NCBI GenBank assembly: GCA_049287205.1
Contig: JBAQFJ010000001.1
Span: 943,653 to 1,007,652, forward strand
Length of the DNA stretch: 64,000 nucleotides
From: Microgenomates group bacterium
GTDB lineage: Bacteria; Patescibacteriota; Microgenomatia; UBA10105; UBA927
Reading direction: 5' to 3'
Below the pieces are notes generated by a model. That model saw only the letters and a program-made list of their open reading frames with translations, made no database searches and had not been told where the DNA came from. Shown here piece by piece: positions 566-47,882 of this stretch. The stretch's first letter is position 1, and the number at the start of each line of letters is the position of its first letter. A program made the position numbers and the translations under genes.

Positions 566-1957
566 TTACCTGATTCTTGATCCTATTGGAAGATCACTTC
601 CCGAAAGAAACACCGGCTTATTGTCTTTGTCATCGGCAGCCACAATCATCCCCTGTGATTCTTCTCCCATCATTTTGCGTGGGGCAAGATTGACAATAAA
701 GAAAAACTGTTTCCCTATAAAGCTGTCGGCTGTATATCCATATTGCCTGACGCCGGTAAAAATAACTCGTTTACCAAGATTGCCAAAATCTATATGAAGT
801 CGGATAAGTTTTTCACTTTTTTCGACATGTTCAGCTGACTCTACTTTTCCTACCCTTATATCGACAGCGGCAAAGTCATCGATGGTGATTGTTGATTTTT
901 TACCTTTTTGGATAGAATACGCGTTGCTTAACCCAATCGTTTCCCTTACTTCTTTCATTGTGCTTTCAGCAACAGCCATGGCCTTTTCTTTCCCTTTTGA
1001 AAGAATTCCTTTGACTAATTCCGGATTATTTTTCAGTTCTTCATACGAATCCCTCGCATTTTTAAAGTATACAAGCAGGGATTCATATAAATATTGTTTT
1101 ACTGCAACATCCGCTATTTGGCCCTTAGTATAGCTGGTTTTCATTTCGTCTACTTTTGCTTTTTCACCAAAAAAATCAAGGTAAGCAAACACCATGTTTC
1201 CCTCAATGTGACCAACGTCAGTAGCATGTGCACGCGTCGGATCAGTATACGTTCCCATCACCTGTTTTTTGATTGTGTCTTCTGAATCAAAAATGGAAAT
1301 GATGTTTCCCAAGGATTTGCTCATTTTCCGTTTTCCGTCAGTCCCTAAAACAGTTGCAACACTATCCGGAATAAACGCCTCAGGAAGTTTAAAGACCTGT
1401 TTTTTATATATGTGGTTAAACCGCTCTCCAACATCGCGGGCAATCTCTACATGTTGTTTTTGGTCTTTTCCGACAGGAACAAAATCCGGTTTGTAGAGAA
1501 GAATGTCAGATGCCATGAGAATCGGATAACTAAACAGCCCGACATTTATATCGTCTTCCGTGATATCTTTTTGGAGCTTATCTTTGTACGCATGGGCGCG
1601 CTTCAACAGTCCAAGCGGTGTGACATTATTAAGAATTGTCTGCAATTCCGGATGAAATCCTTCAAGATCAGACTGTCTGTAAAAAACAAGTCTGTCGAAT
1701 TCTTCAGGTGTTAAGAATCCTTTAAGGAGTGCCAGTTCATTGAGAATAAGCGATTCCACGTTTTTTTGTAATTGTCCTTTGTTTTGAATCGTGGTGAGGG
1801 CATGAAAATCAGCCACGAAAAGAAAGCACTCGTTTTCACGCGCCATTTCTATCGATTGTTTTACCATCCCTAAATAATTACCAATATGGAGACTTCCATC
1901 CCCGCTTGGTGTAATGCCTGATAATATTCGTTTCATATAGTTTTTCCTTTCTATCAT
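566..1957 (-). CDS. trpS: Tryptophanyl-tRNA synthetase with a C-terminal Myf/EMAP-II-like tRNA-binding OB domain
   Basis: N-terminal SGITPSG...HIGNYLG (TrpRS HIGH-like motif) and a KMSKS motif. The C-terminal ~110 aa (DIRVGKV...GKRVIFTGVRQYG...VNLAPRKMMGEESQGM) resemble the Trbp111/MetRS C-terminal tRNA-binding domain. The true start may be the internal Met at 1936. Confidence 0.8.
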   Translation of the reverse strand: MIERKNYMKRILSGITPSGDGSLHIGNYLGMVKQSIEMARENECFLFVADFHALTTIQNKGQLQKNVESLILNELALLKGFLTPEEFDRLVFYRQSDLEGFHPELQTILNNVTPLGLLKRAHAYKDKLQKDITEDDINVGLFSYPILMASDILLYKPDFVPVGKDQKQHVEIARDVGERFNHIYKKQVFKLPEAFIPDSVATVLGTDGKRKMSKSLGNIISIFDSEDTIKKQVMGTYTDPTRAHATDVGHIEGNMVFAYLDFFGEKAKVDEMKTSYTKGQIADVAVKQYLYESLLVYFKNARDSYEELKNNPELVKGILSKGKEKAMAVAESTMKEVRETIGLSNAYSIQKGKKSTITIDDFAAVDIRVGKVESAEHVEKSEKLIRLHIDFGNLGKRVIFTGVRQYGYTADSFIGKQFFFIVNLAPRKMMGEESQGMIVAADDKDNKPVFLSGSDLPIGSRIR

Positions 1958-2012: not shown

Positions 2013-3314
2013 TTACTTCATTTTTCCACTCAAAAATGTTTCATACGCGCCGAGATCTAGAAGCCCGTGTCCTGACAAATTAAACAGAATGGTTTTCTTT
2101 TTCCCTTCTTTTTTTGCCTGTAGCGCTTCCACGATCATGTGTTTAATTGCATGGGCTGATTCCGGCGCAGGGATAATCCCCTCAGTTTCAATAAAAAGCT
2201 GTGCTGCAGCAAACACTTCTTTTTGATCATAGGCAGCCGCCTCAATAAGTTTTTTGTTGTACAAAAAACTCACCAGTGGTGAGACGCCGTGATATCTGAG
2301 CCCTCCCGCATGAATTGGTGAAGGCACATATCCACTGCCGACCGTATACATTTTCATGAGGGGTGTCATCCCTGCGGTATCACCATAGTCATAGCGATAT
2401 TTACCCTTCGTCAGTGACGGACACGCTGTCGGTTCAACAGCAATACAGCGTAACTTTTTTGTGTTACCCATTATCTTGTCTGCCAGAAATGGAAATGCGA
2501 CGCCTGCAAAATTGCTCCCTCCTCCACAGCAACCAATGATGACATCAGGATATTCGCTTACCTGTTCTAGTTGTTTTTTTGCTTCCTGACCAATGATGGT
2601 TTGGTGAAGCATCACATGATTGAGTGCACTTCCCAGAGCATACCGTGTATTTCTACCGGATACTGCAACTTCAATCGCTTCAGATATCGCCATCCCCAAG
2701 CTTCCATTGGTATGTGGATAGTCTTTCAAAAATTGTTTTCCACAAACAGTTTTTGTTGACGGGCTTGCGTGCACCACCCCTCCATAGAGATGTATGATAG
2801 TTTTTCTGTATGGTTTTTGGTCATAGGAACTTTGCACCATAAACACAACGCACTTCATTCCAAATAATTTGGTTGCAAGGGACAGTGCTGACCCCCATTG
2901 TCCAGCACCAGTTTCCGTCGTCAAGGTCGTTATGCCTTCCTTTTTGTTGTAATATGCTTGGGGTAAGGCAGTATTGAATTTATGACTTCCCACAGGCGAC
3001 ACCCCCTCATATTTTGCAAAGATATGCGCAGGTGTTCCCAGTCGTTTTTCAAGACGGCGCAGCCGTAAAAGCGGTGACGGTCTATATGTTTTATAGAGCT
3101 CATACACCTCATCGGGTATCGGCACTGTTTTTTCCAAGGTTGTTTCCTGACGTATAAGTTCGCGCGGAAAAATTGGTGCCAAATCCGCAGCTTGTAATAC
3201 CTGTTTTGTTTTCGGATGCAGATACGGATCCGGCAACCCTACCCCGTACTTTTTTAAGTAATAGGGTAAGTTCAGATATGTTTTTGCTAGTATTTCTTCA
3301 TTTTGTTTTTTCAT
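2013..3314 (-). CDS. trpB: Tryptophan synthase beta chain, long TrpB2-type (PLP-dependent)
   Basis: The PLP lysine motif VGSHKFNTAL and the GAGQWGSALS region are present. A length of 433 aa is typical of TrpB2. Confidence 0.8.
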   Translation of the reverse strand: MKKQNEEILAKTYLNLPYYLKKYGVGLPDPYLHPKTKQVLQAADLAPIFPRELIRQETTLEKTVPIPDEVYELYKTYRPSPLLRLRRLEKRLGTPAHIFAKYEGVSPVGSHKFNTALPQAYYNKKEGITTLTTETGAGQWGSALSLATKLFGMKCVVFMVQSSYDQKPYRKTIIHLYGGVVHASPSTKTVCGKQFLKDYPHTNGSLGMAISEAIEVAVSGRNTRYALGSALNHVMLHQTIIGQEAKKQLEQVSEYPDVIIGCCGGGSNFAGVAFPFLADKIMGNTKKLRCIAVEPTACPSLTKGKYRYDYGDTAGMTPLMKMYTVGSGYVPSPIHAGGLRYHGVSPLVSFLYNKKLIEAAAYDQKEVFAAAQLFIETEGIIPAPESAHAIKHMIVEALQAKKEGKKKTILFNLSGHGLLDLGAYETFLSGKMK

Positions 3315-3460: not shown

Positions 3461-3533
3461 GGCAGGAGCACCAGGATTTGAACCTGAAATAGGGATTTTG
3501 GAGATCCCTGTGATACCGTTTCACTATGCTCCT
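3461..3533 (-). tRNA. tRNA-Trp (anticodon CCA)
   Basis: Reverse complement is AGGAGCAUAGUGAAACGGUAUCACAGGGAUCUCCAAAAUCCCUAUUUCAGGUUCAAAUCCUGGUGCUCCUG(CC). It has a 7-bp acceptor stem, a D-loop with GG, anticodon loop CUCCAAA (anticodon CCA), a T-loop TTCAAAT and discriminator G. Confidence 0.85.
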
Positions 3534-3589
3534 AAAAAACAAATAGGCCCTTGTAAATCACTCAAAGACTTGAGTAACTTACAAGGGCC
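3534..3589 (-). terminator. Intrinsic terminator (minus strand) directly upstream of tRNA-Trp
   Basis: Perfect 11-bp inverted repeat GGCCCTTGTAA...TTACAAGGGCC (3546-3589) with a nested ACTCAA/TTGAGT stem. On the minus strand it is followed by TATTTGTTTTTT. Confidence 0.6.
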
Positions 3590-3630
3590 TACAAAAAAGG
3601 CGGTTCCACCTTGTTTCATCGTCCTGCCAT

Positions 3631-3653
3631 TAAAAAACTCCCTTTCGGGGAGT
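3631..3653 (-). terminator. Intrinsic terminator (minus strand) downstream of the tRNA-like CAT gene
   Basis: Minus strand reads ACTCCCCGAAAGGGAGT followed by TTTTTTA. Confidence 0.55.
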
Positions 3654-3862
3654 CATGATATAAGGCGGGAAAATCTTATTACATGCTCCGCTGAACGCGA
3701 CACATGGTGCTTTATTTTTACAGGTAAGCTTCTGGATGAGACATTCTTTCTTTGGAAAGATAGCCCTCTCAGCCTCGATTTTCATCGATAGGAAGATCCC
3801 AATCAATCTCCCTGTGGCATTTATTCACTTGGCAACTAGTATAACACACCTCGTCAAATTTG

Positions 3863-3932
3863 TTGCGGAGCCAGGAATCGCACCTGGTCTAGAAGATTAT
3901 GAGCCTTCTGTGCAACTTTACACTACCCCGCG
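3863..3932 (-). tRNA. Atypical tRNA-like gene with anticodon CAT (candidate initiator-like tRNA-Met, or a degenerate tRNA)
   Basis: Reverse complement is CGCGGGGUAGUGUAAAGUUGCACAGAAGGCUCAUAAUCUUCUAGACCAGGUGCGAUUCCUGGCUCCGCAA. It has a 7-bp acceptor stem with a C1xA72 mismatch, U8, anticodon loop CUCAUAA, a T-arm CCAGG/CCUGG and discriminator A. The D-loop is short (6 nt) and lacks the GG pair. The gene is flanked by a TATAAT-containing putative promoter and its own terminator. Confidence 0.45.
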
Positions 3933-4009
3933 GTTTGTTTAAAGAACAATGGTCATTATATCTGATTTTGACCATGCTGTATAGCGCGGGGTATACTAGA
4001 GTAAGATAT

Positions 4010-4513
4010 ATGAAATCTAAAAAAACATCTGTTTCATTCACAATCCCCTTCAGCATTGTTGTCTTTTTCATTACTGTTTTTGTTGGTTTTTTGATATATA
4101 AACAAACGGCAGTCAATGTTTTGGGTACCTCTGATACCGCAACCTCATTCTTGAAAGAAGCATATATCCCCTTAGGAACAGGTGTAAACAATGCAACCGA
4201 TTGGGTAGACGTCAAGGGAGTGGCTGCATATGTGAATACTGGTTCCTACGGAGCCATGAAAAAAGTAACTTTTGAAGTGAGTATTGGGGTGCCGTCCGGA
4301 AATCAGACAGCGTATGTGAGGCTATACAACGCGACAGATAAGCATCCCGTGTGGTATTCAGAAATGACCATGGCAGGTGTTGGCCCTGAACTCCTCATAT
4401 CAACGCCTGTCACTCTTGACAGCGGGAATAAGCTGTACCAGGTACATATGAAATCTCAGCTTGGTGCGACAACTAATCTTTTGCAAGCGCGACTACACAT
4501 TCTTCTGTATTAA
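4010..4513 (+). CDS. Hypothetical secreted or membrane-anchored protein (N-terminal signal anchor)
   Basis: Start taken at MKSKKTSVSF, followed by a hydrophobic helix. TTGACC-18-TATACT lies upstream. The longer ORF-track start at 3899 would overlap the tRNA-like gene. Confidence 0.5.
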   Translation: MKSKKTSVSFTIPFSIVVFFITVFVGFLIYKQTAVNVLGTSDTATSFLKEAYIPLGTGVNNATDWVDVKGVAAYVNTGSYGAMKKVTFEVSIGVPSGNQTAYVRLYNATDKHPVWYSEMTMAGVGPELLISTPVTLDSGNKLYQVHMKSQLGATTNLLQARLHILLY

Positions 4514-4555
4514 TGGTTGTTTTTGCCTGATAAATCCCGTACAATAGCTTCAATT

Positions 4556-4627
4556 GTCAGCGTAGCTCAGTGGTAGAGCAGCGCCTTCATAAGGCGTGTG
4601 TCGCAGGTCCGATCCCCGCCGCTGACA
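4556..4627 (+). tRNA. tRNA with anticodon CAT (elongator Met or Ile2-lysidine type)
   Basis: GUCAGCGUAGCUCAGUGGUAGAGCAGCGCCUUCAUAAGGCGU... with paired G1-C72, D-loop AGUGGUA, anticodon loop UUCAUAA and discriminator A. The T-arm has one A-C mismatch. Confidence 0.7.
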
Positions 4628-4632
4628 CAAGT

Positions 4633-4983
4633 TTAATAGAATAACCCCCACCAGATTTTCCAATTGGTCGTAGCACTGGTTTTTTTGAGTGTTTCCCCAT
4701 TCCCTAGTTCCTGATTTATCAGGATGATTGTTTCGCCTGGGCGCGCCATATTCAGCTTCATTCTTGCTTCAGACTCGATAAATTCCGGAGACCTCGTAAA
4801 TTCAAGTTTTTTTTGCAGTGCAGCTTCCCTTTTTTGAAGCTCCACAAGAATCTTTTCCCGATCTTCTCTGGCATTTTGTCGTTTTATCGTGGAAGAGATG
4901 GAAGAAATGAGGCTAATACACCCAAAAATGAGGCTAATTAACAGAAGTAATGGGAAAAATCGAACTATGGGTTTTTGCTTCAT
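4633..4983 (-). CDS. Septum formation initiator FtsB/DivIC-like protein
   Basis: N-terminal TM helix, a coiled-coil segment, and an ARMKLNMARPGETII signature of the FtsB/DivIC family. Confidence 0.6.
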   Translation of the reverse strand: MKQKPIVRFFPLLLLISLIFGCISLISSISSTIKRQNAREDREKILVELQKREAALQKKLEFTRSPEFIESEARMKLNMARPGETIILINQELGNGETLKKTSATTNWKIWWGLFY

Positions 4984-5048
4984 AGCTAATTTATTTTTTA
5001 TACCTTGTTATTGCTGTGCATATGTGATATTATAGGCTTTATCTTGCC

Positions 5049-5064
5049 TGAGGCAATTGCCTCA
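5049..5064. promoter_or_regulatory. Perfect 16-bp palindrome TGAGGCAATTGCCTCA about 30 nt upstream of the recombinase gene
   Basis: Read directly from the sequence. It could be an operator or a recombination-site half. Confidence 0.35.
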
Positions 5065-5095
5065 TTATTAGACCTGCTTCAAACATATACGCATT

Positions 5096-5956
5096 ATGAG
5101 TGTTGATCTTAAGGCTACAAATGAACAGTTTGTTGAATATTTAGCGTCTCGCAAGCGAGCACGTGCTACCATCGTAGCATATAAAAAAGACATTGACCAA
5201 ATGTTGACGTTTTTTCAGACTGCAGAGAAAAAAGCCATTGGGGACATCACAAAAGATGAAATTGACGCTTTTTTGAAGAAATTGACCAGTGACAGCTATA
5301 CCCCAAAATCAGTATCCCGAAAAATTAACTCCATAAAAACCTACTTCCGGTTTCTTAAGATTTCCAATATCATTGCCGCTGATCCAGCGCTTGAGGTAGA
5401 ACATCCAAAATATGATGTAAAACCGCCTCGGATTTTGTCTAAACTTGAATATCGTGCGCTTCGTGATGCATGCAGGGGCGATGTCCGCATGTATGCGATC
5501 GTTGAACTGTTTTTGCAGACAGGTGTCCGCATTGGAGAACTTGCGGCACTTATGGTTGTTGACGTGAAAGCTACGGAACTGCATATTGCCAGTCAAGAAG
5601 GTCATGAAGAGCGAATGGTACCTCTAAATAAGGCAGCGCTCGAGGCCCTCCATAAATACATGGAAATCCGAAACAGTGAGGCAAAAAGCAATGCGCTCTT
5701 TATCACAAAAACAGGTCGCCCACTTTTGATTCGAAATATCAGGACTGCAATTGACCGGTATTTTAGAATTGCTGGCATTGAAGGAGCAAAGGTAAATGAC
5801 CTTCGTCACACCTTTATCGCCCATCATTTGATGGCGGGCACTCCCATTATGACACTGTCAAAACTTGTCGGACACAAACGCCTTTCCACGACAGAAAAAT
5901 ATTTGGAGCTTATTAAGGGACAACAGTCTGAGAATGTGAAGCTTGAAGAGTTATAA
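5096..5956 (+). CDS. Tyrosine site-specific recombinase (XerC/XerD / phage-integrase family)
   Basis: C-terminal catalytic region LRHTFIAHHLMAGTPIMTLSKLVGHKRLSTTEKYLEL carrying the R...HxxR...Y signature. Length 286 aa. Confidence 0.8.
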   Translation: MSVDLKATNEQFVEYLASRKRARATIVAYKKDIDQMLTFFQTAEKKAIGDITKDEIDAFLKKLTSDSYTPKSVSRKINSIKTYFRFLKISNIIAADPALEVEHPKYDVKPPRILSKLEYRALRDACRGDVRMYAIVELFLQTGVRIGELAALMVVDVKATELHIASQEGHEERMVPLNKAALEALHKYMEIRNSEAKSNALFITKTGRPLLIRNIRTAIDRYFRIAGIEGAKVNDLRHTFIAHHLMAGTPIMTLSKLVGHKRLSTTEKYLELIKGQQSENVKLEEL

Positions 5957-5981
5957 CCCCAAGCGCTACAATACGTGAGTA

Positions 5982-30155: not shown

Positions 30156-30788
30156 GTGCACATGAAAATAATTGTCGGACTTGGAAATCCCGGAAGTGAA
30201 TATCAAGATACGCGTCATAATATCGGGTTCATGACGATTGATAAACTGGCAAAAGAATTGACCCCGGAATCCGTTTCCTGGAAAGAAGAGGCAAAATTTA
30301 GCGCCATGACGACAAAAATTGGTGAAGTTGTTCTGGTAAAACCGATTACCTTCATGAATAATTCTGGCGTTGCCGTGTCTGCAATTATGCATTTTTTCAA
30401 ATTGACTCCCGCTGATGTCTGGGTGATTCATGATGATATTGATCTGCCGATTGGAAAAATTAGGATTCGCCAGAAGGGAAGCAGCGCGGGACATCGGGGC
30501 GTTGAGTCTCTTATTGCCGAACTTAAAACTGATGCGTTTGTCCGATTTCGTCTTGGTATCGGGCGGGGTAAGTTGTTTAGTAAAGGTGATTCGGATACGC
30601 AAGATATTGAAAAAGGAAACGCGGGGAAAGCGCAACACGGAAGGCATCAATGGGATATCTCATTTGTTCTTTCCAGGTTTTCTCAGGGAGAAGCGGGAAC
30701 GCTCAAACATTTGATTAAAAATGGAACGGAAGCCGTCCGTATTGCACTGAATGAAGGCATTGATAAGGCAATGACACGATTCAATTAA
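30156..30788 (+). CDS. pth: Peptidyl-tRNA hydrolase (with a C-terminal extension)
   Basis: MKIIVGLGNPGSEYQDTRHNIGF N-terminus. Confidence 0.85.
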   Translation: MHMKIIVGLGNPGSEYQDTRHNIGFMTIDKLAKELTPESVSWKEEAKFSAMTTKIGEVVLVKPITFMNNSGVAVSAIMHFFKLTPADVWVIHDDIDLPIGKIRIRQKGSSAGHRGVESLIAELKTDAFVRFRLGIGRGKLFSKGDSDTQDIEKGNAGKAQHGRHQWDISFVLSRFSQGEAGTLKHLIKNGTEAVRIALNEGIDKAMTRFN

Positions 30789-43310: not shown

Positions 43311-43383
43311 GGGCCCGTAGCTTAGCTGGTAGAGCGCATCATTTGCAATGATGAGGTCACCGGTTCGAATCCGGTCGGGTCCA
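43311..43383 (+). tRNA. tRNA-Ala (anticodon UGC)
   Basis: GGGCCCGUAGCUUAGCUGGUAGAGCGCAUCAUUUGCAAUGAUGAGGUCACCGGUUCGAAUCCGGUCGGGUCCA with a G3:U70 pair. Confidence 0.9.
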
Positions 43384-43935
43384 CAATAAAAAGTTCGTTT
43401 CGCGGGATAAGCGATTACTGAGTAATCTTTTATCTCGCGACAAGAGCGCGTCGTCGCGTAAACCGCGACAATAGCACTTTTACAATATCAATAGTATCTT
43501 CCTTTATAAATAGGACAAGGAAGATACATGGTTTTTTTGAATGAAATATGAGTAGTTACATCGTAAGGGATAATCTTAAATGTTGATTACCTGTTACGAT
43601 GACATTTCGTTGGGCGACAATTTTTTTATTAAATGAGTCGAGAAAAATAGAGCAAAGCGCGCTAATTAATTTTAGCTCCTTTGTTCTCTGCAACGCTTTT
43701 AAAGTTGATAATGGATGCCCTGGGTATTCATGCCGAGGAAGGACGTATATGACAGCGATATTCGTCGGGGAGGAGTCATAATCCTGTGATCCGGCGGTTT
43801 CCGAATGGGGAAACCCGTCTAGTGAAGAACTAGTCAATGTACGATGAAGATAACCGAAAGGTTGGGATAGTCGTATGTAGGATACCGGGCGAACTGAAAC
43901 ATCTCAGTAGCCTGAGGAATAGAAATCAAGTACGA

Positions 43936-43967
<32 letters not shown>

Positions 43968-45684
43968 AAGTCTAAACCACAGCGCAAGTTGTGGGGTTGT
44001 AGGGCTTTCGATCTGGAATGCAATTGGTGATAACAGAATACCGTGGAATAGGAAACCAAAGAACGTGAAAGTCGTGTATGTGAAATTACCAATTCTCCTA
44101 GAGAGTTCCTAAGTACCATGGACCACGAAGGGTCTGTGGGAATCTGGGTCAACCACGATCCAAGACTAAATACATGAATGCACCGATAGTGAACAAGTAC
44201 CATGAGGGAAAGGTGAAAAGCACCCCGGAAGGGGAATGAAATAGTACCTGAAATTATCAACTAACAAACAGACGAAGTCCTGCAATCGCAAGATTTGGAT
44301 AACGTCGTGCCTATTGAAGAATGAACCGGCGAGTTGCCCAGTACGGCTTTGCTTAATCAAGTAACCCTTGAGGAGGCGTAGTGAAAGCGAGGTCTAATTG
44401 ACCGATTATGTTGTACTGGACAGACCCGAAACCAGGTGAGCTAACCATGAGCAGGGTGAATGTTGACGAAAGCCAACAAGAGGCCCGAACTCGTCAGAGC
44501 TGCAAATCTGTGAGATGACTTGTGGTTAGGGGTAATATGCCTATCGAACCTGGAGATAGCTGGTTCTCCCCGAAATATATTTAGGTATAGCGGTTACTAA
44601 TTCCCGGAAGGGGTAGAGCACTGAATGATACGTGTTTCGCAAGGAATACGCATCAATCAAACTCCGAATACTTTCCGTGATACCGTAACTAGTCAGACAT
44701 GCACGGCTAAGCGCGTGTGTCAAGAGGGCAACAGCCCGGACTTACATCTAAGGTCTCTAAGTGTGTGCTCAGTGGTTAAGGAAGTTATGAATTTAAGACA
44801 CCCAGGAAGTTGGCTCAGAAGCAGCCACCTTTTAAAGAACGCGTAACAGCGCACTGGATGAAATTCGTAGCGCCGAAAATGAACGAGGCTCAAGCACGCC
44901 ACCGAAGATTAAGATGTGCCGTAAGGCACGTGGTAGGGGAGCGTTCTGTTCTGCGGTGAAGGTTAGGCTGTAAGGCTGACTGGAGCGGACAGAAGTGAGA
45001 ATGCCGGTATGAGTAGCGTTTGGAAGTGAGAATCTTCCATGCCGAATGCGCAAGGTTTCCGAAGCAACGTTCGTCGACTTCGGGTAAGTCGGATCTAAGC
45101 CGAGGCCATTATTTTGATGGCGTAGGTCGATGTATAAACGGTTTATATTCCGTTACTATAGTGTATTGATTAAGACACAAAGGAATGACAATGAGGGATT
45201 TGTTGATGTCTCGCACTCGCGGGATCTAAGCATTAAAGTAGTGAGGACTGGTAAATCCGTTCTCATGTTTAACTAAAGATGTGGGGGAGTTTGAGGAGCA
45301 ATCCGATGACAACATCAATCGTTTCTTATTCGAGAAAAGTTTCGTTGTGAAATACATTGTATCCGTACTAATAACCAACACTGGTGCGCTGGTAGAGTAT
45401 ACCAAGGCAAGCGGGCGACAGCAGTTTAAGGAACTCGGCAACAAAAACTAGGTGTAACTTATTGGAGATACCTTACCTAGAGCAATCTAGGTCACAGTAA
45501 ACGACACTATGCAACTGTTTAACTAAAACACAGGTCTCTGCGAAGCGGAAACGCAACGTATAGGGGCTGACACCTGCCCAGTGCCGGTAAGTTAAAAATG
45601 GTCGGTAAACAAAAACGTAAGTTTTTTTAGCTGGCTTTTTAAGCTCCGGTGAACGGCAGCAGTAACTATAACTGTTCTATGGTA

Positions 45685-46292
45685 AATTTTCGTTGCTATA
45701 GTGAGGTAGACAAACCTCTCTTTTATTCCCCGTGCAAAAGGAAGGCGGGATAAAAGAAAAATTGTGCTAAATGCTGGAAACTCTGAGTATCTTGTGCTAC
45801 TATGTGTTATATGACACATAGTGAAAAAGCATCAAGTGCAGACAATCAGCAGGAAAGATTGGATCCGTGGTGGATTGTAGGATTTGTTGATGGAGAAGGA
45901 TGTTTTTCCGTTAGTACGTTTAAAAATTCAACTTGTTCAAGTGGGTTTCAAACTCTTTATGAGTTTGTGGTCACACAAGGAGAAACGAGTAAACGAGCTA
46001 TGGAAGCAATCAAAACTTATTTTGGTTGCGGAGCGATTTATATAAATCGCAGACATGATAACCATCATCACGATCTTTTACGATATTGTGTACGAAAGCA
46101 GGAAGATTTGAAAACAAAAATCATCCCGTTTTTCAGAAAATATCCATTACAATCTGCAAAACAAGAACAATTTGAGACATTTTGTCAAAAATTGTTTGAT
46201 CCAAAATCCTCAACGACTATACGCACAACTCGGTAAAACGAGAAGATATAGTCTGATCTTCATGGCGACATGAAGTTAACAAATTTTTATGA
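45685..46292 (+). other. Group I intron in 23S domain IV, after GGTA and before GCGAAATTCC (E. coli ~1931 site), carrying a LAGLIDADG ORF
   Basis: The exon sequence is interrupted between ...AACTGTTCTATGGTA and GCGAAATTCCTTGTCGGG. Boundaries are accurate to within 1-2 nt. Confidence 0.7.
45802..46236 (+). CDS. LAGLIDADG homing endonuclease (single-motif, I-CreI-like), intron-encoded
   Basis: VGFVDGEGCF motif. Located inside the 23S intron. Confidence 0.8.
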   Translation: MCYMTHSEKASSADNQQERLDPWWIVGFVDGEGCFSVSTFKNSTCSSGFQTLYEFVVTQGETSKRAMEAIKTYFGCGAIYINRRHDNHHHDLLRYCVRKQEDLKTKIIPFFRKYPLQSAKQEQFETFCQKLFDPKSSTTIRTTR

Positions 46293-46912
46293 GCGAAATT
46301 CCTTGTCGGGCAAGTTCCGACCCGCACGAAAGGTAGAATGACATAGTGACTGTCTTAAACTGTTACCCGGCGAAATTGAAATGGCTGTGAAGATGCGGCC
46401 TACTCACACATGGACAAAAAGACCCCATGAAGCTTTACTGCAATTTGGCACTGAAGAGTTTATTTTAACTGTCGAGTATAGGTGGGAGCCTTCGGGCGAA
46501 CAATGGAATACCACTCTTTAAAATGAATGAATCTTACTTACTCCTACATAAAAATCTAGGAGCAGGACACTGTCTGATGGGCAGTTTAACTGGGGAGGTT
46601 GCCTCCAAAAGTGTAACGGAGGCGTGCAAAGGTTGGCTAATCCTGAATGGAAACCAGGACGTGTCGTGCAAACGCGATAAGCCAGCTTGACTGCGAGACG
46701 TACATGTCGAGCAGATGCGAAAGCAGGCGTTAGTGATCCTCGATACCCTCGTGGGAGGGTTCGGGCTTAACGGATAAAAGCTACTCTGGGGATAACAGGC
46801 TGATCGCTTCCGAGAGTCCATATCGACGAGGCGGTTTGGCACCTCGATGTCGGCTCATCCTATCCTGGGGCTGTAGAAGGTCCCAAGGGTCCGGCTGTTC
46901 GCCGGTTAAAAG

Positions 46913-46948
<36 letters not shown>

Positions 46949-47310
46949 AGACCTTAGTGGAATAGACGCCACTATAACGAGCTGTCCATCCTTTACCGTT
47001 CTAGAATCTTTGTATATCGAGAAATTTTAAAGGATCCCGCAAAACAATACTAATTATATTGAATGCGGGAATAAATCTGACTAATTGCTGGAAACACTCA
47101 GTATCTAATACTACTTTTAAAAAAAGTAACAATGTATTAGTGGAGTCAATCAGCAGGGAAGGCCCCGCCTTGGCGGGGAACCCTCAGAGACTATATGTCA
47201 GATCTGGCTTCGCCAGAAAGATATAGTCCGAACTGTATGGCGACATACAGACTGCAGCAGAAATGCGTGCAGAGTCGTTTTTACATCAAAAAACGATATT
47301 AACATTATTG
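46949..47310 (+). other. ORF-less group I intron in 23S domain V, inserted after GAGACAGT and before TCGGTC (E. coli 2593 / I-CreI-type site)
   Basis: The exon resumes with TCGGTCTCTATCC...CTAGTACGAGAGGACCG. The intron ends in G. It shares an AAGATATAGTC...ATGGCGACAT core-like block with intron 1. Confidence 0.7.
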
Positions 47311-47754
47311 TCGGTCTCTATCCTGTGTGAGCGTTCGATTCTTGAGGGGAGTTCTCTCTAGTACGAGAGGACCGAGAGGAACAGATCCCTGGTTTGCCTG
47401 TTGTCACCCTGAGAGGTGGCACCGCAGGGTAGCTAGATCTGGAAGGGATAAGTGCTGAAAGCATCTCAAGCACCAAGCCCACCCCAAGATGAAGAATCGT
47501 TGAAGATCCGTTGTAGATGACAACGTTGATAGGCGAGAAGTGTACGCACCGTGAGGTGTTCTAGCTTACTCGTACTAATTGATCGAATGTTGTGGAGAAC
47601 AAAGGAAGATTTGTTCTATTCCCAAACGATATGAACATCGCCTCTGGGATCAGCAACAAGATTATCCCTTATGTGTAATTACTCATTCAAAAAGTGTGAA
47701 TATTGATATTAACAATTAAATATTGGTAAAATAGCGAATCGAGAACCGCTCTAG

Positions 47755-47882
47755 AGTTCTCCAGTTTTTTGAGCGACGTGGCACCACCCGATCCCATCCC
47801 GAACTCGGAAGTGAAACGCGTTAGCGCTGACAATACTTGGTCCGCGAGGTCCTGGGAAGATAAGTCAAAGCTGGGGAACTGT
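47755..47882 (+). rRNA. rrf: 5S ribosomal RNA (boundaries approximate)
   Basis: CCCATCCCGAACTCGGAAGTGAAACGCGTTAGCGCTGA core, and a helix I GTTCTCCAG/CTGGGGAAC extended into a long processing stem. Confidence 0.7.

Follow-up and report, generated by a model that had tools for sequence, protein, structure and literature searches.

Among the described systems closest to the locus reported here are the initiator tRNA of Escherichia coli, tRNAfMet, and the tryptophan class of the T-box family (Rfam RF00230). The locus lies in a 64,000-nucleotide stretch of contig JBAQFJ010000001.1 from a Microgenomates group bacterium (assembly GCA_049287205.1, forward-strand positions 943,653 to 1,007,652), referred to below as the window, and comprises a tRNA-like gene with a CAU anticodon at 3863-3932 on the minus strand and the spacer that separates it from a tRNA-Trp gene. 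An initial annotation had put this gene forward as a divergent initiator tRNA with its own promoter and terminators or, alternatively, as a tRNA-derived regulatory RNA or a decaying paralog. From the analysis below we conclude with good, though not complete, confidence that two adjacent and separate units are present, namely a functional initiator tRNA gene (3863-3932, minus strand) and a tryptophan T-box leader (3534-3848, minus strand).

The sequence of E. coli tRNAfMet used for comparison was verified against 5426 complete E. coli genomes, every one of which contains it at 100% identity, with a median of four copies. Among bacterial initiators, the anticodon-stem patterns au/GC/GC, GC/GC/gu and au/GC/gu are natural variants found in some mycoplasmas and α-proteobacteria; G30 is the essential base, and ribosomes co-adapt to variant initiators (Shetty et al., PMC5389676). 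In the tRNA elbow, U55, C56, G18 and G19 are conserved and pseudouridine 55 is universal in cytosolic tRNAs, and the eukaryotic initiator tRNA carries the initiator-specific T-loop bases A54 and A60 (review PMC7912444). In the T-box family, an ultrashort Stem I is typical of the translational T-boxes of actinobacteria, whereas transcriptional T-boxes generally need a long, elbow-binding Stem I (PMC7583486).

Initiator-Type tRNA Gene

The 70-nt cloverleaf on the minus strand was detected by both ARAGORN and the Rfam tRNA model (RF00005), the latter with 46.1 bits against a gathering score of 29. Its sequence, divided by structural element, is CGCGGGG-UA-GUGU-AAAGUU-GCAC-A-GAAGG-CUCAUAA-UCUUC-UAGA-CCAGG-UGCGAUU-CCUGG-CUCCGCA-A. 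The C1xA72 mismatch, the discriminator A and the anticodon loop CUCAUAA named in the initial annotation are all present, and the 6-nt D-loop (AAAGUU, in the D-arm GUGU-AAAGUU-GCAC) does lack GG. The variable loop is 4 nt long, and the gene encodes no CCA. The three consecutive G-C pairs of bacterial initiators (29:41, 30:40 and 31:39) are incomplete, as had also been noted: G30-C40 is present, and the other two are A29-U41 and G31-U39.

Compared with E. coli tRNAfMet, the 5' strand of the acceptor stem is identical and the 3' strand differs at one position (C67 to U, giving G6-U67). The formyltransferase determinants G2-C71 and C3-G70 are the same in both, and the likeness extends to the CAU anticodon, the loop CUCAUAA, C1xA72, A73 and G30-C40, with U54-A58, G53-C61 and C56 retained. 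The window tRNA differs from tRNAfMet in having G55 for U55, A18 for G18, a D-loop of 6 rather than 9 nt, U11-A24, A29-U41, G31-U39, the 4-nt variable loop and no encoded CCA. Its au/GC/gu anticodon stem, three purine:pyrimidine pairs with G30-C40 among them, is the same as in mycoplasma and α-proteobacterial initiators (PMC5389676), although those organisms belong to a different phylum.

We examined about 200 comparison loci (numbered with the prefix L; L001 and L016 are labelled Gottesmanbacteria) and scanned metagenomes with the pattern CTCATAA-N12-15-GTGCGATTC-N6-CCGCAA. The matches listed, to which all counts for the tRNA class given below are limited, include more than 120 contigs, chiefly from groundwater and lake samples. 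They yielded 68 unique tRNA sequences representing the class, 19 unique sequences with the D-arm GUGU-AAAGYN-GCAC representing the subclass of the window tRNA, and 41 diverse unique sequences used as the covariation set for the wider class. A73 and G55 are invariant in this metagenome set by construction, because the pattern fixed the T-loop and CCGCAA. At positions 1:72, the 68 members carry CxA (44), U-A (12), AxA (10) or GxA (2), and never a strong pair. The full set of three G-C pairs occurs in one member and G30-C40 in 67; the anticodon-stem patterns include au/GC/GC in 20, au/GC/gu in 19 (the window tRNA among them) and au/GC/ug in 13.

The same tRNA type was found in L001, L002 and L016, the last of which also shares the gene order of the window. 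The L016 tRNA differs from that of the window at 1 of 70 bases, with TrpB2 61% and TrpRS (tryptophanyl-tRNA synthetase) 79% identical between the two and the spacer adjoining the tRNA strongly diverged. Compensatory changes were observed in 7 of 21 pairs of the window subclass, including a covarying 26:44 pair, and in 13 of 20 pairs of the wider class. Within the covariation set, G2-C71, G4-C69 and G5-C68 are kept in 41 of 41 sequences (with one alignment gap at G4), as is G30-C40, and C3-G70 is kept in 40. The tRNAs of relatives score 46-52 bits with the Rfam tRNA model; since these scores are equally low, the low score of the window tRNA is a trait of the class and not a sign of decay. When a phage collection was searched with the tRNA, the sole match, at 75%, was a tRNA-Met of an Acinetobacter phage, which is uninformative.

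The TATAAT sequence seen upstream of the gene was located as a -10 box at 3955-3960 (minus strand), 22 nt before the tRNA 5' end. The surrounding promoter region is nearly identical in L016, and of 29 distinct contexts of the window subclass, 25 have a -10-like box, often with an extended TG, 12-35 nt before the tRNA (mode 22-24 nt). Both observations support the earlier claim that the tRNA has a promoter of its own. The same region is overlapped on the plus strand by a promoter-like sequence, TTGACC-18-TATACT at 3968-3997, which faces an open reading frame (ORF) at 4010-4513 encoding a membrane-anchored protein of 167 amino acids for which Pfam gave no match. A pair of divergent promoters may explain why 3933-4010 is so strongly conserved in L016.

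These features suggest that the gene at 3863-3932 is most likely the normal initiator tRNA of its lineage and that its oddities are lineage-typical; of the possibilities raised at the outset, that of a divergent initiator is the one borne out by the E. coli-like acceptor stem, by conservation with compensatory changes and by the natural au/GC/gu precedent. If it follows the rules known for bacterial initiators, the tRNA would be transcribed from its own σ70-type promoter, matured by RNase P and the CCA-adding enzyme, and charged by methionyl-tRNA synthetase. The formyltransferase would then recognize the 1x72 mismatch together with G2-C71, C3-G70 and A73, and the mismatch would keep the tRNA from EF-Tu and from peptidyl-tRNA hydrolase. 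Acceptance by the 30S P site and IF3 would proceed via G30-C40 within the three purine:pyrimidine pairs. A 1:72 mismatch shields initiator tRNA from peptidyl-tRNA hydrolase, and a gene for this enzyme (PF01195) is located at 30156-30788 on the plus strand of the window. In the 64-kb window, 8 ORFs were scanned with Pfam and the others read by eye; neither fmt nor def was noticed among them.

The A18/G55 Elbow

A feature that the initial annotation had not mentioned is the T-loop, UGCGAUU, which carries G at position 55. In place of the canonical elbow (G18 G19 with U55 C56), the window tRNA has A18 G19 with G55 C56. The D-loop of all 68 class members ends in A-G-(Y/A)-N, placing A18 G19 in register and never G18 G19. 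The metagenome set was selected for G55, and the informative comparison is therefore that of the 588 unique tRNAs found in the loci. These fall into GG/U55 (472), GG/C55 (16) and AG/G55 (80), with no AG/U55 (0); 12 nominal "GG/G55" tRNAs carry AG in the 18/19 register. In most loci A18/G55 is found in the initiator alone, and the adjoining tRNAs are standard. Because G19-C56, U54-A58 and G53-C61 are retained in the A18/G55 class, we read the change as a coupled exchange of the two bases that make the G18-U55 tertiary contact.

The eukaryotic initiator tRNA offers a parallel in principle, being likewise set apart from elongators at otherwise universal T-loop positions. The positions are 54 and 60 there as opposed to 55 and 18 here, and the domain is another one, with no homology. 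Searches of the literature accessible to us returned no published description of the A18/G55 swap, of its T-loop or of initiator tRNAs from the candidate phyla radiation (CPR), and no relevant paper on tRNA modification or T-boxes in the CPR.

The swap was also observed outside initiators. Locus L087 (6.9 kb, over its whole length) and L152 hold tRNA arrays in which nearly all genes have G55 T-loops (UGCRANU) and AG D-loops, and in further arrays (L120, L125, L164, L193, L084 and L093) A18/G55 is confined to single elongator tRNAs, e.g., Ile-UAU and Leu-UAA.

The second CAT tRNA of the window, on the plus strand at 4556-4628, had been described as canonical with a paired G1-C72. The pair is present, but the tRNA is not fully canonical, having C55 in the T-loop UCCGAUC beside a normal GG D-loop and an A51xC63 mismatch. 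It is probably the elongator tRNA-Met. The comparison of this second CAT tRNA involved the window and L001, L005, L016, L104, L119, L123, L137, L138, L140, L150, L163, L182, L185 and L187. In loci that hold a window-type initiator, 13 of 22 elongator-type CAT tRNAs have C55, and close orthologues of this tRNA switch between U55 and C55. Since C55 is recurrent, both Met tRNAs of the clade depart from U55.

The Tryptophan T-Box Leader

Hairpins with U-runs do lie downstream of the tRNA on the minus strand, at 3654-3636, 3612-3597 and 3591-3544, and the region contains 6 terminator-like sites compared with 1.4 ± 1.2 in shuffled sequences. They were not borne out as terminators of the tRNA gene, being parts of a separate tryptophan T-box leader with a putative promoter of its own. 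The spacer at 3534-3835 (minus strand) folds far better than shuffled sequences (z = -6.7) and is 76-86% identical to positions 4008-4339 of L182. There, the initiator tRNA is encoded on the other strand with a terminator of its own, and the leader is still directly upstream of tRNA-Trp and trpS. A U-run hairpin was found within 80 nt 3' of the tRNA in 18 of the 29 distinct contexts of the window subclass; no such hairpin is present at this distance in the window. The putative promoter of the leader is an extended -10-like element, TGTGTTATACT, with the counterparts GTGTGATATACT in L016 and TATGTTATACT in L182, the latter divergent from the initiator tRNA.

The elements of the leader (Table 1) were assessed in an alignment of nine Microgenomates-type leaders (alignment A5). 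All nine begin with a hairpin of 5-9 bp that shows compensatory changes in its stem and presents UGG followed by A or G in its terminal loop. The specifier UGG matches the downstream tRNA-Trp, trpB2 and trpS. The elements of a long Stem I (K-turn, specifier internal loop, AG bulge and distal loop) are absent from the window leader. Further downstream, the IIA helix is 100% paired in the nine leaders, with a GC-to-AU exchange, and the F-box-like element reads CCGU[AUC]A in relatives and CCUGUA in the window. The loop GCUU of this IIA/B-like element can pair with a downstream AAGC; as read by eye in two sequence types only, the pseudoknot partners would be GCUU/AAGC in the window and UUCUC/GAGAA in L173. 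At the Stem III-like position, six of the nine leaders (window, L182, L001, L002, L123 and L181) have a hairpin with a U-run.

The antiterminator contains a 7-nt bulge, UGGAACC at 3608-3602 (minus strand), which fits the UGGNACC layout, and its 8 pairs are 100% paired in the nine leaders with compensatory changes. The 5' strand of the terminator is the 3' strand of the antiterminator, so that columns 314-321 of the alignment take part in both structures. Taken together with the two upstream helices, the antiterminator shows 100% pairing over 15 pairs, 7 of which carry changes on both sides; slid controls gave 10-45% pairing. The basal 14 pairs of the terminator are 99.2% paired in the nine leaders and 9 of them are changed on both sides (slid controls, 32-57%).

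A strict search for the antiterminator layout recovered 13 CPR-type loci and 6 from other phyla in which it immediately precedes trpB2 or tRNA-Trp. In five of the non-CPR loci the Rfam T-box model scored 101-123 bits at this place, upstream of trpB2; it gave no match above threshold in the CPR relatives. With the tryptophan class of RF00230 the window leader shares the UGG specifier, the UGGNACC bulge between A1 and A2, the overlapping terminator, the position upstream of trpB2 and trpS and, as a candidate, the F-box-like IIA/B element. It differs in lacking the long Stem I, in having a tRNA-Trp gene between the leader and the protein genes, and in having A at the N position. The ileS T-boxes of actinobacteria (Sherwood et al. 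2015, reviewed in PMC7583486) likewise have the specifier in the loop of a short hairpin, no elbow platform, and Stem II and IIA/B; however, they sequester the Shine-Dalgarno sequence and act on translation, whereas the window leader has a terminator/antiterminator platform.

In the mechanism expected for such a leader, uncharged tRNA-Trp would base-pair at two sites, through its anticodon CCA with the UGG in the loop of Stem I and through its terminal 3' NCCA with the UGGN bulge. The antiterminator (3613-3582) would thereby be stabilized against the overlapping terminator (3591-3544), and read-through would then reach tRNA-Trp, trpB2 and trpS. The tRNA-Trp gene starts one base after the U-run of the T-box and is located within the proposed regulated unit. 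The TrpB-like protein encoded beside the tRNA locus has its best relatives, at 61-71% identity, in Candidatus Gottesmanbacteria and other Patescibacteria metagenome-assembled genomes; together with the 23S rRNA described below, this places the window in a CPR (Microgenomates-like) bacterium.

Other candidate identities of the spacer were tried and rejected. The 6S, signal recognition particle, RNase P and transfer-messenger RNA families of Rfam gave no match in the spacer or in its L182 and L016 counterparts, and matches of the spacers to a plastid 3' untranslated region and microRNA families were chance hits driven by palindromes. The trpB ncRNA motif (RF04312) matched in L016 only, at 22-24 bits versus a gathering score of 59 and on both strands; we rejected this match because the motif was described from Firmicutes and Fusobacteria (PMC11109978). 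An ORF of 58 amino acids in the spacer (3630-3806) is not conserved in L182 and L016, where indels break the frame.

Table 1. Positions of tRNA genes, leader elements, promoters and downstream genes in the window
Feature	Position	Strand	Remarks
trpS	566-1957	-	C-terminal tRNA-binding domain; TIGR00233, 266 bits, above cut-off; Pfam matches
trpB2	2013-3314	-	TrpB-like pyridoxal 5'-phosphate (PLP) enzyme; NCBIfam NF009057, 661 bits, above cut-off; Pfam matches
tRNA-Trp(CCA)	3461-3533	-	ARAGORN, Rfam; discriminator G73, standard GG/UUCAAAU elbow
Terminator	3534-3591	-	20-bp hairpin 3591-3544, then UAUUUGUUUUUU; second "terminator" of the initial annotation
Antiterminator	3582-3613	-	CAAGG-UGGAACC-GCC-UUUUUUGUA-GGC-CCUUG; A1 CAAGG/CCUUG, A2 GCC/GGC
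Stem III-like GC-rich hairpin	3630-3654	-	GACUCCCC-GAAA-GGGAGU, then U6; first "terminator" of the initial annotation
Helix with internal loop and variable tip	3682-3706	-	CAUG-UGUCG...CGGAG-CAUG; 4 pairs 100% paired, 3 changed on both sides
Stem IIA/B-like element	3709-3734	-	CAG-AAGCUUAC-CUG-UAAAAAUAAAGC; counterpart of the F-box region
Ultrashort Stem I	3791-3812	-	GGGAGAU-UGAUUGGG-AUCUUCC; Trp codon UGG at 3801-3799, then a purine, in the terminal loop
Extended -10-like element (putative T-box leader promoter)	3838-3848	-	TGTGTTATACT; directly 3' of the tRNA
tRNA-Met(cat), initiator type	3862-3932 (ARAGORN); 3863-3932 (Rfam)	-	
Initiator tRNA promoter	3951-3983	-	TATACA, 17-nt spacer, TATAAT; consensus scan 10/12
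Second CAT tRNA	4556-4628	+	ARAGORN, Rfam; G1-C72, U32, T-loop UCCGAUC
tRNA-Ala	43311-43384	+	ARAGORN

Two Adjacent Units and the Alternatives

Several observations weigh against the reading of an initiator tRNA gene next to a tryptophan T-box. The sample unbiased for the T-loop consists of the window and three genome loci (L001, L002 and L016) only, and the view of the host genome is limited to the 64-kb window and its four tRNA genes. The window subclass has U11-A24, unlike E. coli-type initiators, which have A11-U24; the latter pair occurs in 33 of the 68 class members. As for the leader, the Rfam T-box model gave 14.6 bits on the window, below the gathering score of 93, in a local match (3583-3616, model positions 183-216, E 0.35). 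The bulge reads UGGA in the window, and its A cannot pair with G73 of tRNA-Trp; the corresponding sequence is UGGC in seven of nine leaders and UGGU in L182, and tRNA-Trp has G73 both in L016 (a UGGC leader) and in L182. Lastly, the U-run hairpin 3654-3630 precedes both the antiterminator and the sensor of the tRNA 3' end, and could end transcription early. This hairpin may act as a pause giving the tRNA time to bind, or may be a leaky termination site. As a separate observation, the T-box switch of the window may be weakened by its UGGA bulge.

The alternative that fares best, though we consider it unlikely, is that the genome encodes a canonical tRNAfMet at another site and that the tRNA described here is a second, specialized initiator-like one. 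It would accord with the small part of the genome seen (64 kb with 4 tRNA genes) and with the absence from the subclass of A11-U24 and of two of the three G-C pairs. Against it, all four initiator-type tRNAs found without selection on the T-loop (window, L001, L002 and L016) are of this type, and no canonical initiator was found beside a window-type tRNA in about 200 loci. Genomes of the CPR are small, and their tRNA genes are usually present in one copy each.

A further alternative, in which the spacer holds no T-box and no structure beyond simple intrinsic terminators for the tRNA gene, is improbable. The finding of three hairpin-plus-U-run sites and the sub-threshold Rfam T-box score are what such an arrangement would give, but the L182 leader precedes tRNA-Trp and trpS while the initiator tRNA, on the opposite strand, has its own terminator. 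Moreover, one strand is common to the antiterminator and the terminator, each of which shows covariation, UGG is in the Stem I loop of all nine leaders, and canonical T-boxes occupy the same place in other phyla.

An assignment of the gene as elongator tRNA-Met or as a tRNA-Ile2 in which C34 becomes lysidine, with the plus-strand CAT tRNA as the initiator, is very improbable. ARAGORN labels both CAT genes tRNA-Met, and the Y11-R24 pair in the D-stem is elongator-like; yet it is the minus-strand tRNA that has C1xA72 and the tRNAfMet-like acceptor, and the plus-strand tRNA that has G1-C72. Positions 1:72 are paired in all other CAT tRNAs of the roughly 200 loci, and members of the class of the plus-strand tRNA can carry the acceptor GGCUACG, which we take to be the acceptor stem of the E. 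coli elongator tRNA-Met. In addition, tRNA-Ile(UAU) genes are present in loci of the window subclass, and a lysidine-dependent CAU tRNA may therefore be dispensable; two CAU tRNAs, one initiator and one elongator, may suffice in this subclass.

The least probable reading is that of a pseudogene (a decaying paralog) or of a regulatory RNA derived from a tRNA. One could cite for it the Rfam score of 46 bits next to 59-72 bits for the other three window tRNAs and the lost GG/UUC elbow consensus. It was set aside because the gene hardly varies between genomes with protein identities of 60-80%, every stem is maintained by compensatory changes, the promoter is conserved and all relatives share the low scores and the other "defects."

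Other Features of the Window

ARAGORN found four tRNA genes in the window (Table 1). The window TrpRS has a C-terminal tRNA-binding domain of the EMAP/CsaA type (PF01588); in L182 (region 4445-5974) this domain is a separate ORF just downstream of trpS. In L016, a 29-nt copy of the 5' half of a window-type tRNA-Trp (AGGAGCATAGTGAAACGGTATCACAGGGA, at about 3664-3700) lies between the T-box terminator and the locus's own tRNA-Trp and resembles what would be left of a tRNA-Trp gene after its replacement.

At 43311-47876, tRNA-Ala is directly followed by a 23S rRNA of 3910 nt (the model is 2925 nt) and then by 5S rRNA; no 16S rRNA was found in the 64-kb window. The 23S rRNA contains a group I intron at 46993-47250 and, apart from it, an ORF for a LAGLIDADG homing endonuclease at 45802-46236. 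As these lie at separate sites, more than one insertion is likely.

Discussion

The locus is a housekeeping one: an ordinary initiator tRNA gene beside an ordinary, if divergent, tryptophan regulon. The variants for which we found no description in the literature accessible to us are features of classes: the A18/G55 elbow linked to the initiator, the near-universal loss of the full set of three G-C pairs with G30-C40 retained, and, in the CPR, a T-box of the transcriptional kind whose Stem I is ultrashort. The combination of an ultrashort Stem I with transcription attenuation is treated as unusual in the review literature (PMC7583486).

The elbow may serve as an initiator mark. A broader proposal, possible in our view but on balance doubtful, is that the swap acts as an extra identity mark of the initiator, or as an anti-determinant that repels factors of elongation or modification, and compensates for the eroded three-G-C signature and, in the subclass, for the lost A11-U24. 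In some lineages or phages (L087 and L152), entire tRNA sets would have acquired the swap. The leader, as a separate matter, would be a terminating T-box that works without an elbow-binding long Stem I and controls the gene for its own ligand, tRNA-Trp.

For annotation, the class accounts for the low scores of genes that could pass as pseudogenes or as elongator tRNA-Met, and CPR genomes hold T-boxes in a form missed by the Rfam model. The findings also bear on how initiators are told from elongators once the three G-C pairs have shrunk to G30-C40. The strict A18/G55 linkage in an initiator class provides a natural test of the need for the G18/U55 contact and for pseudouridine 55.

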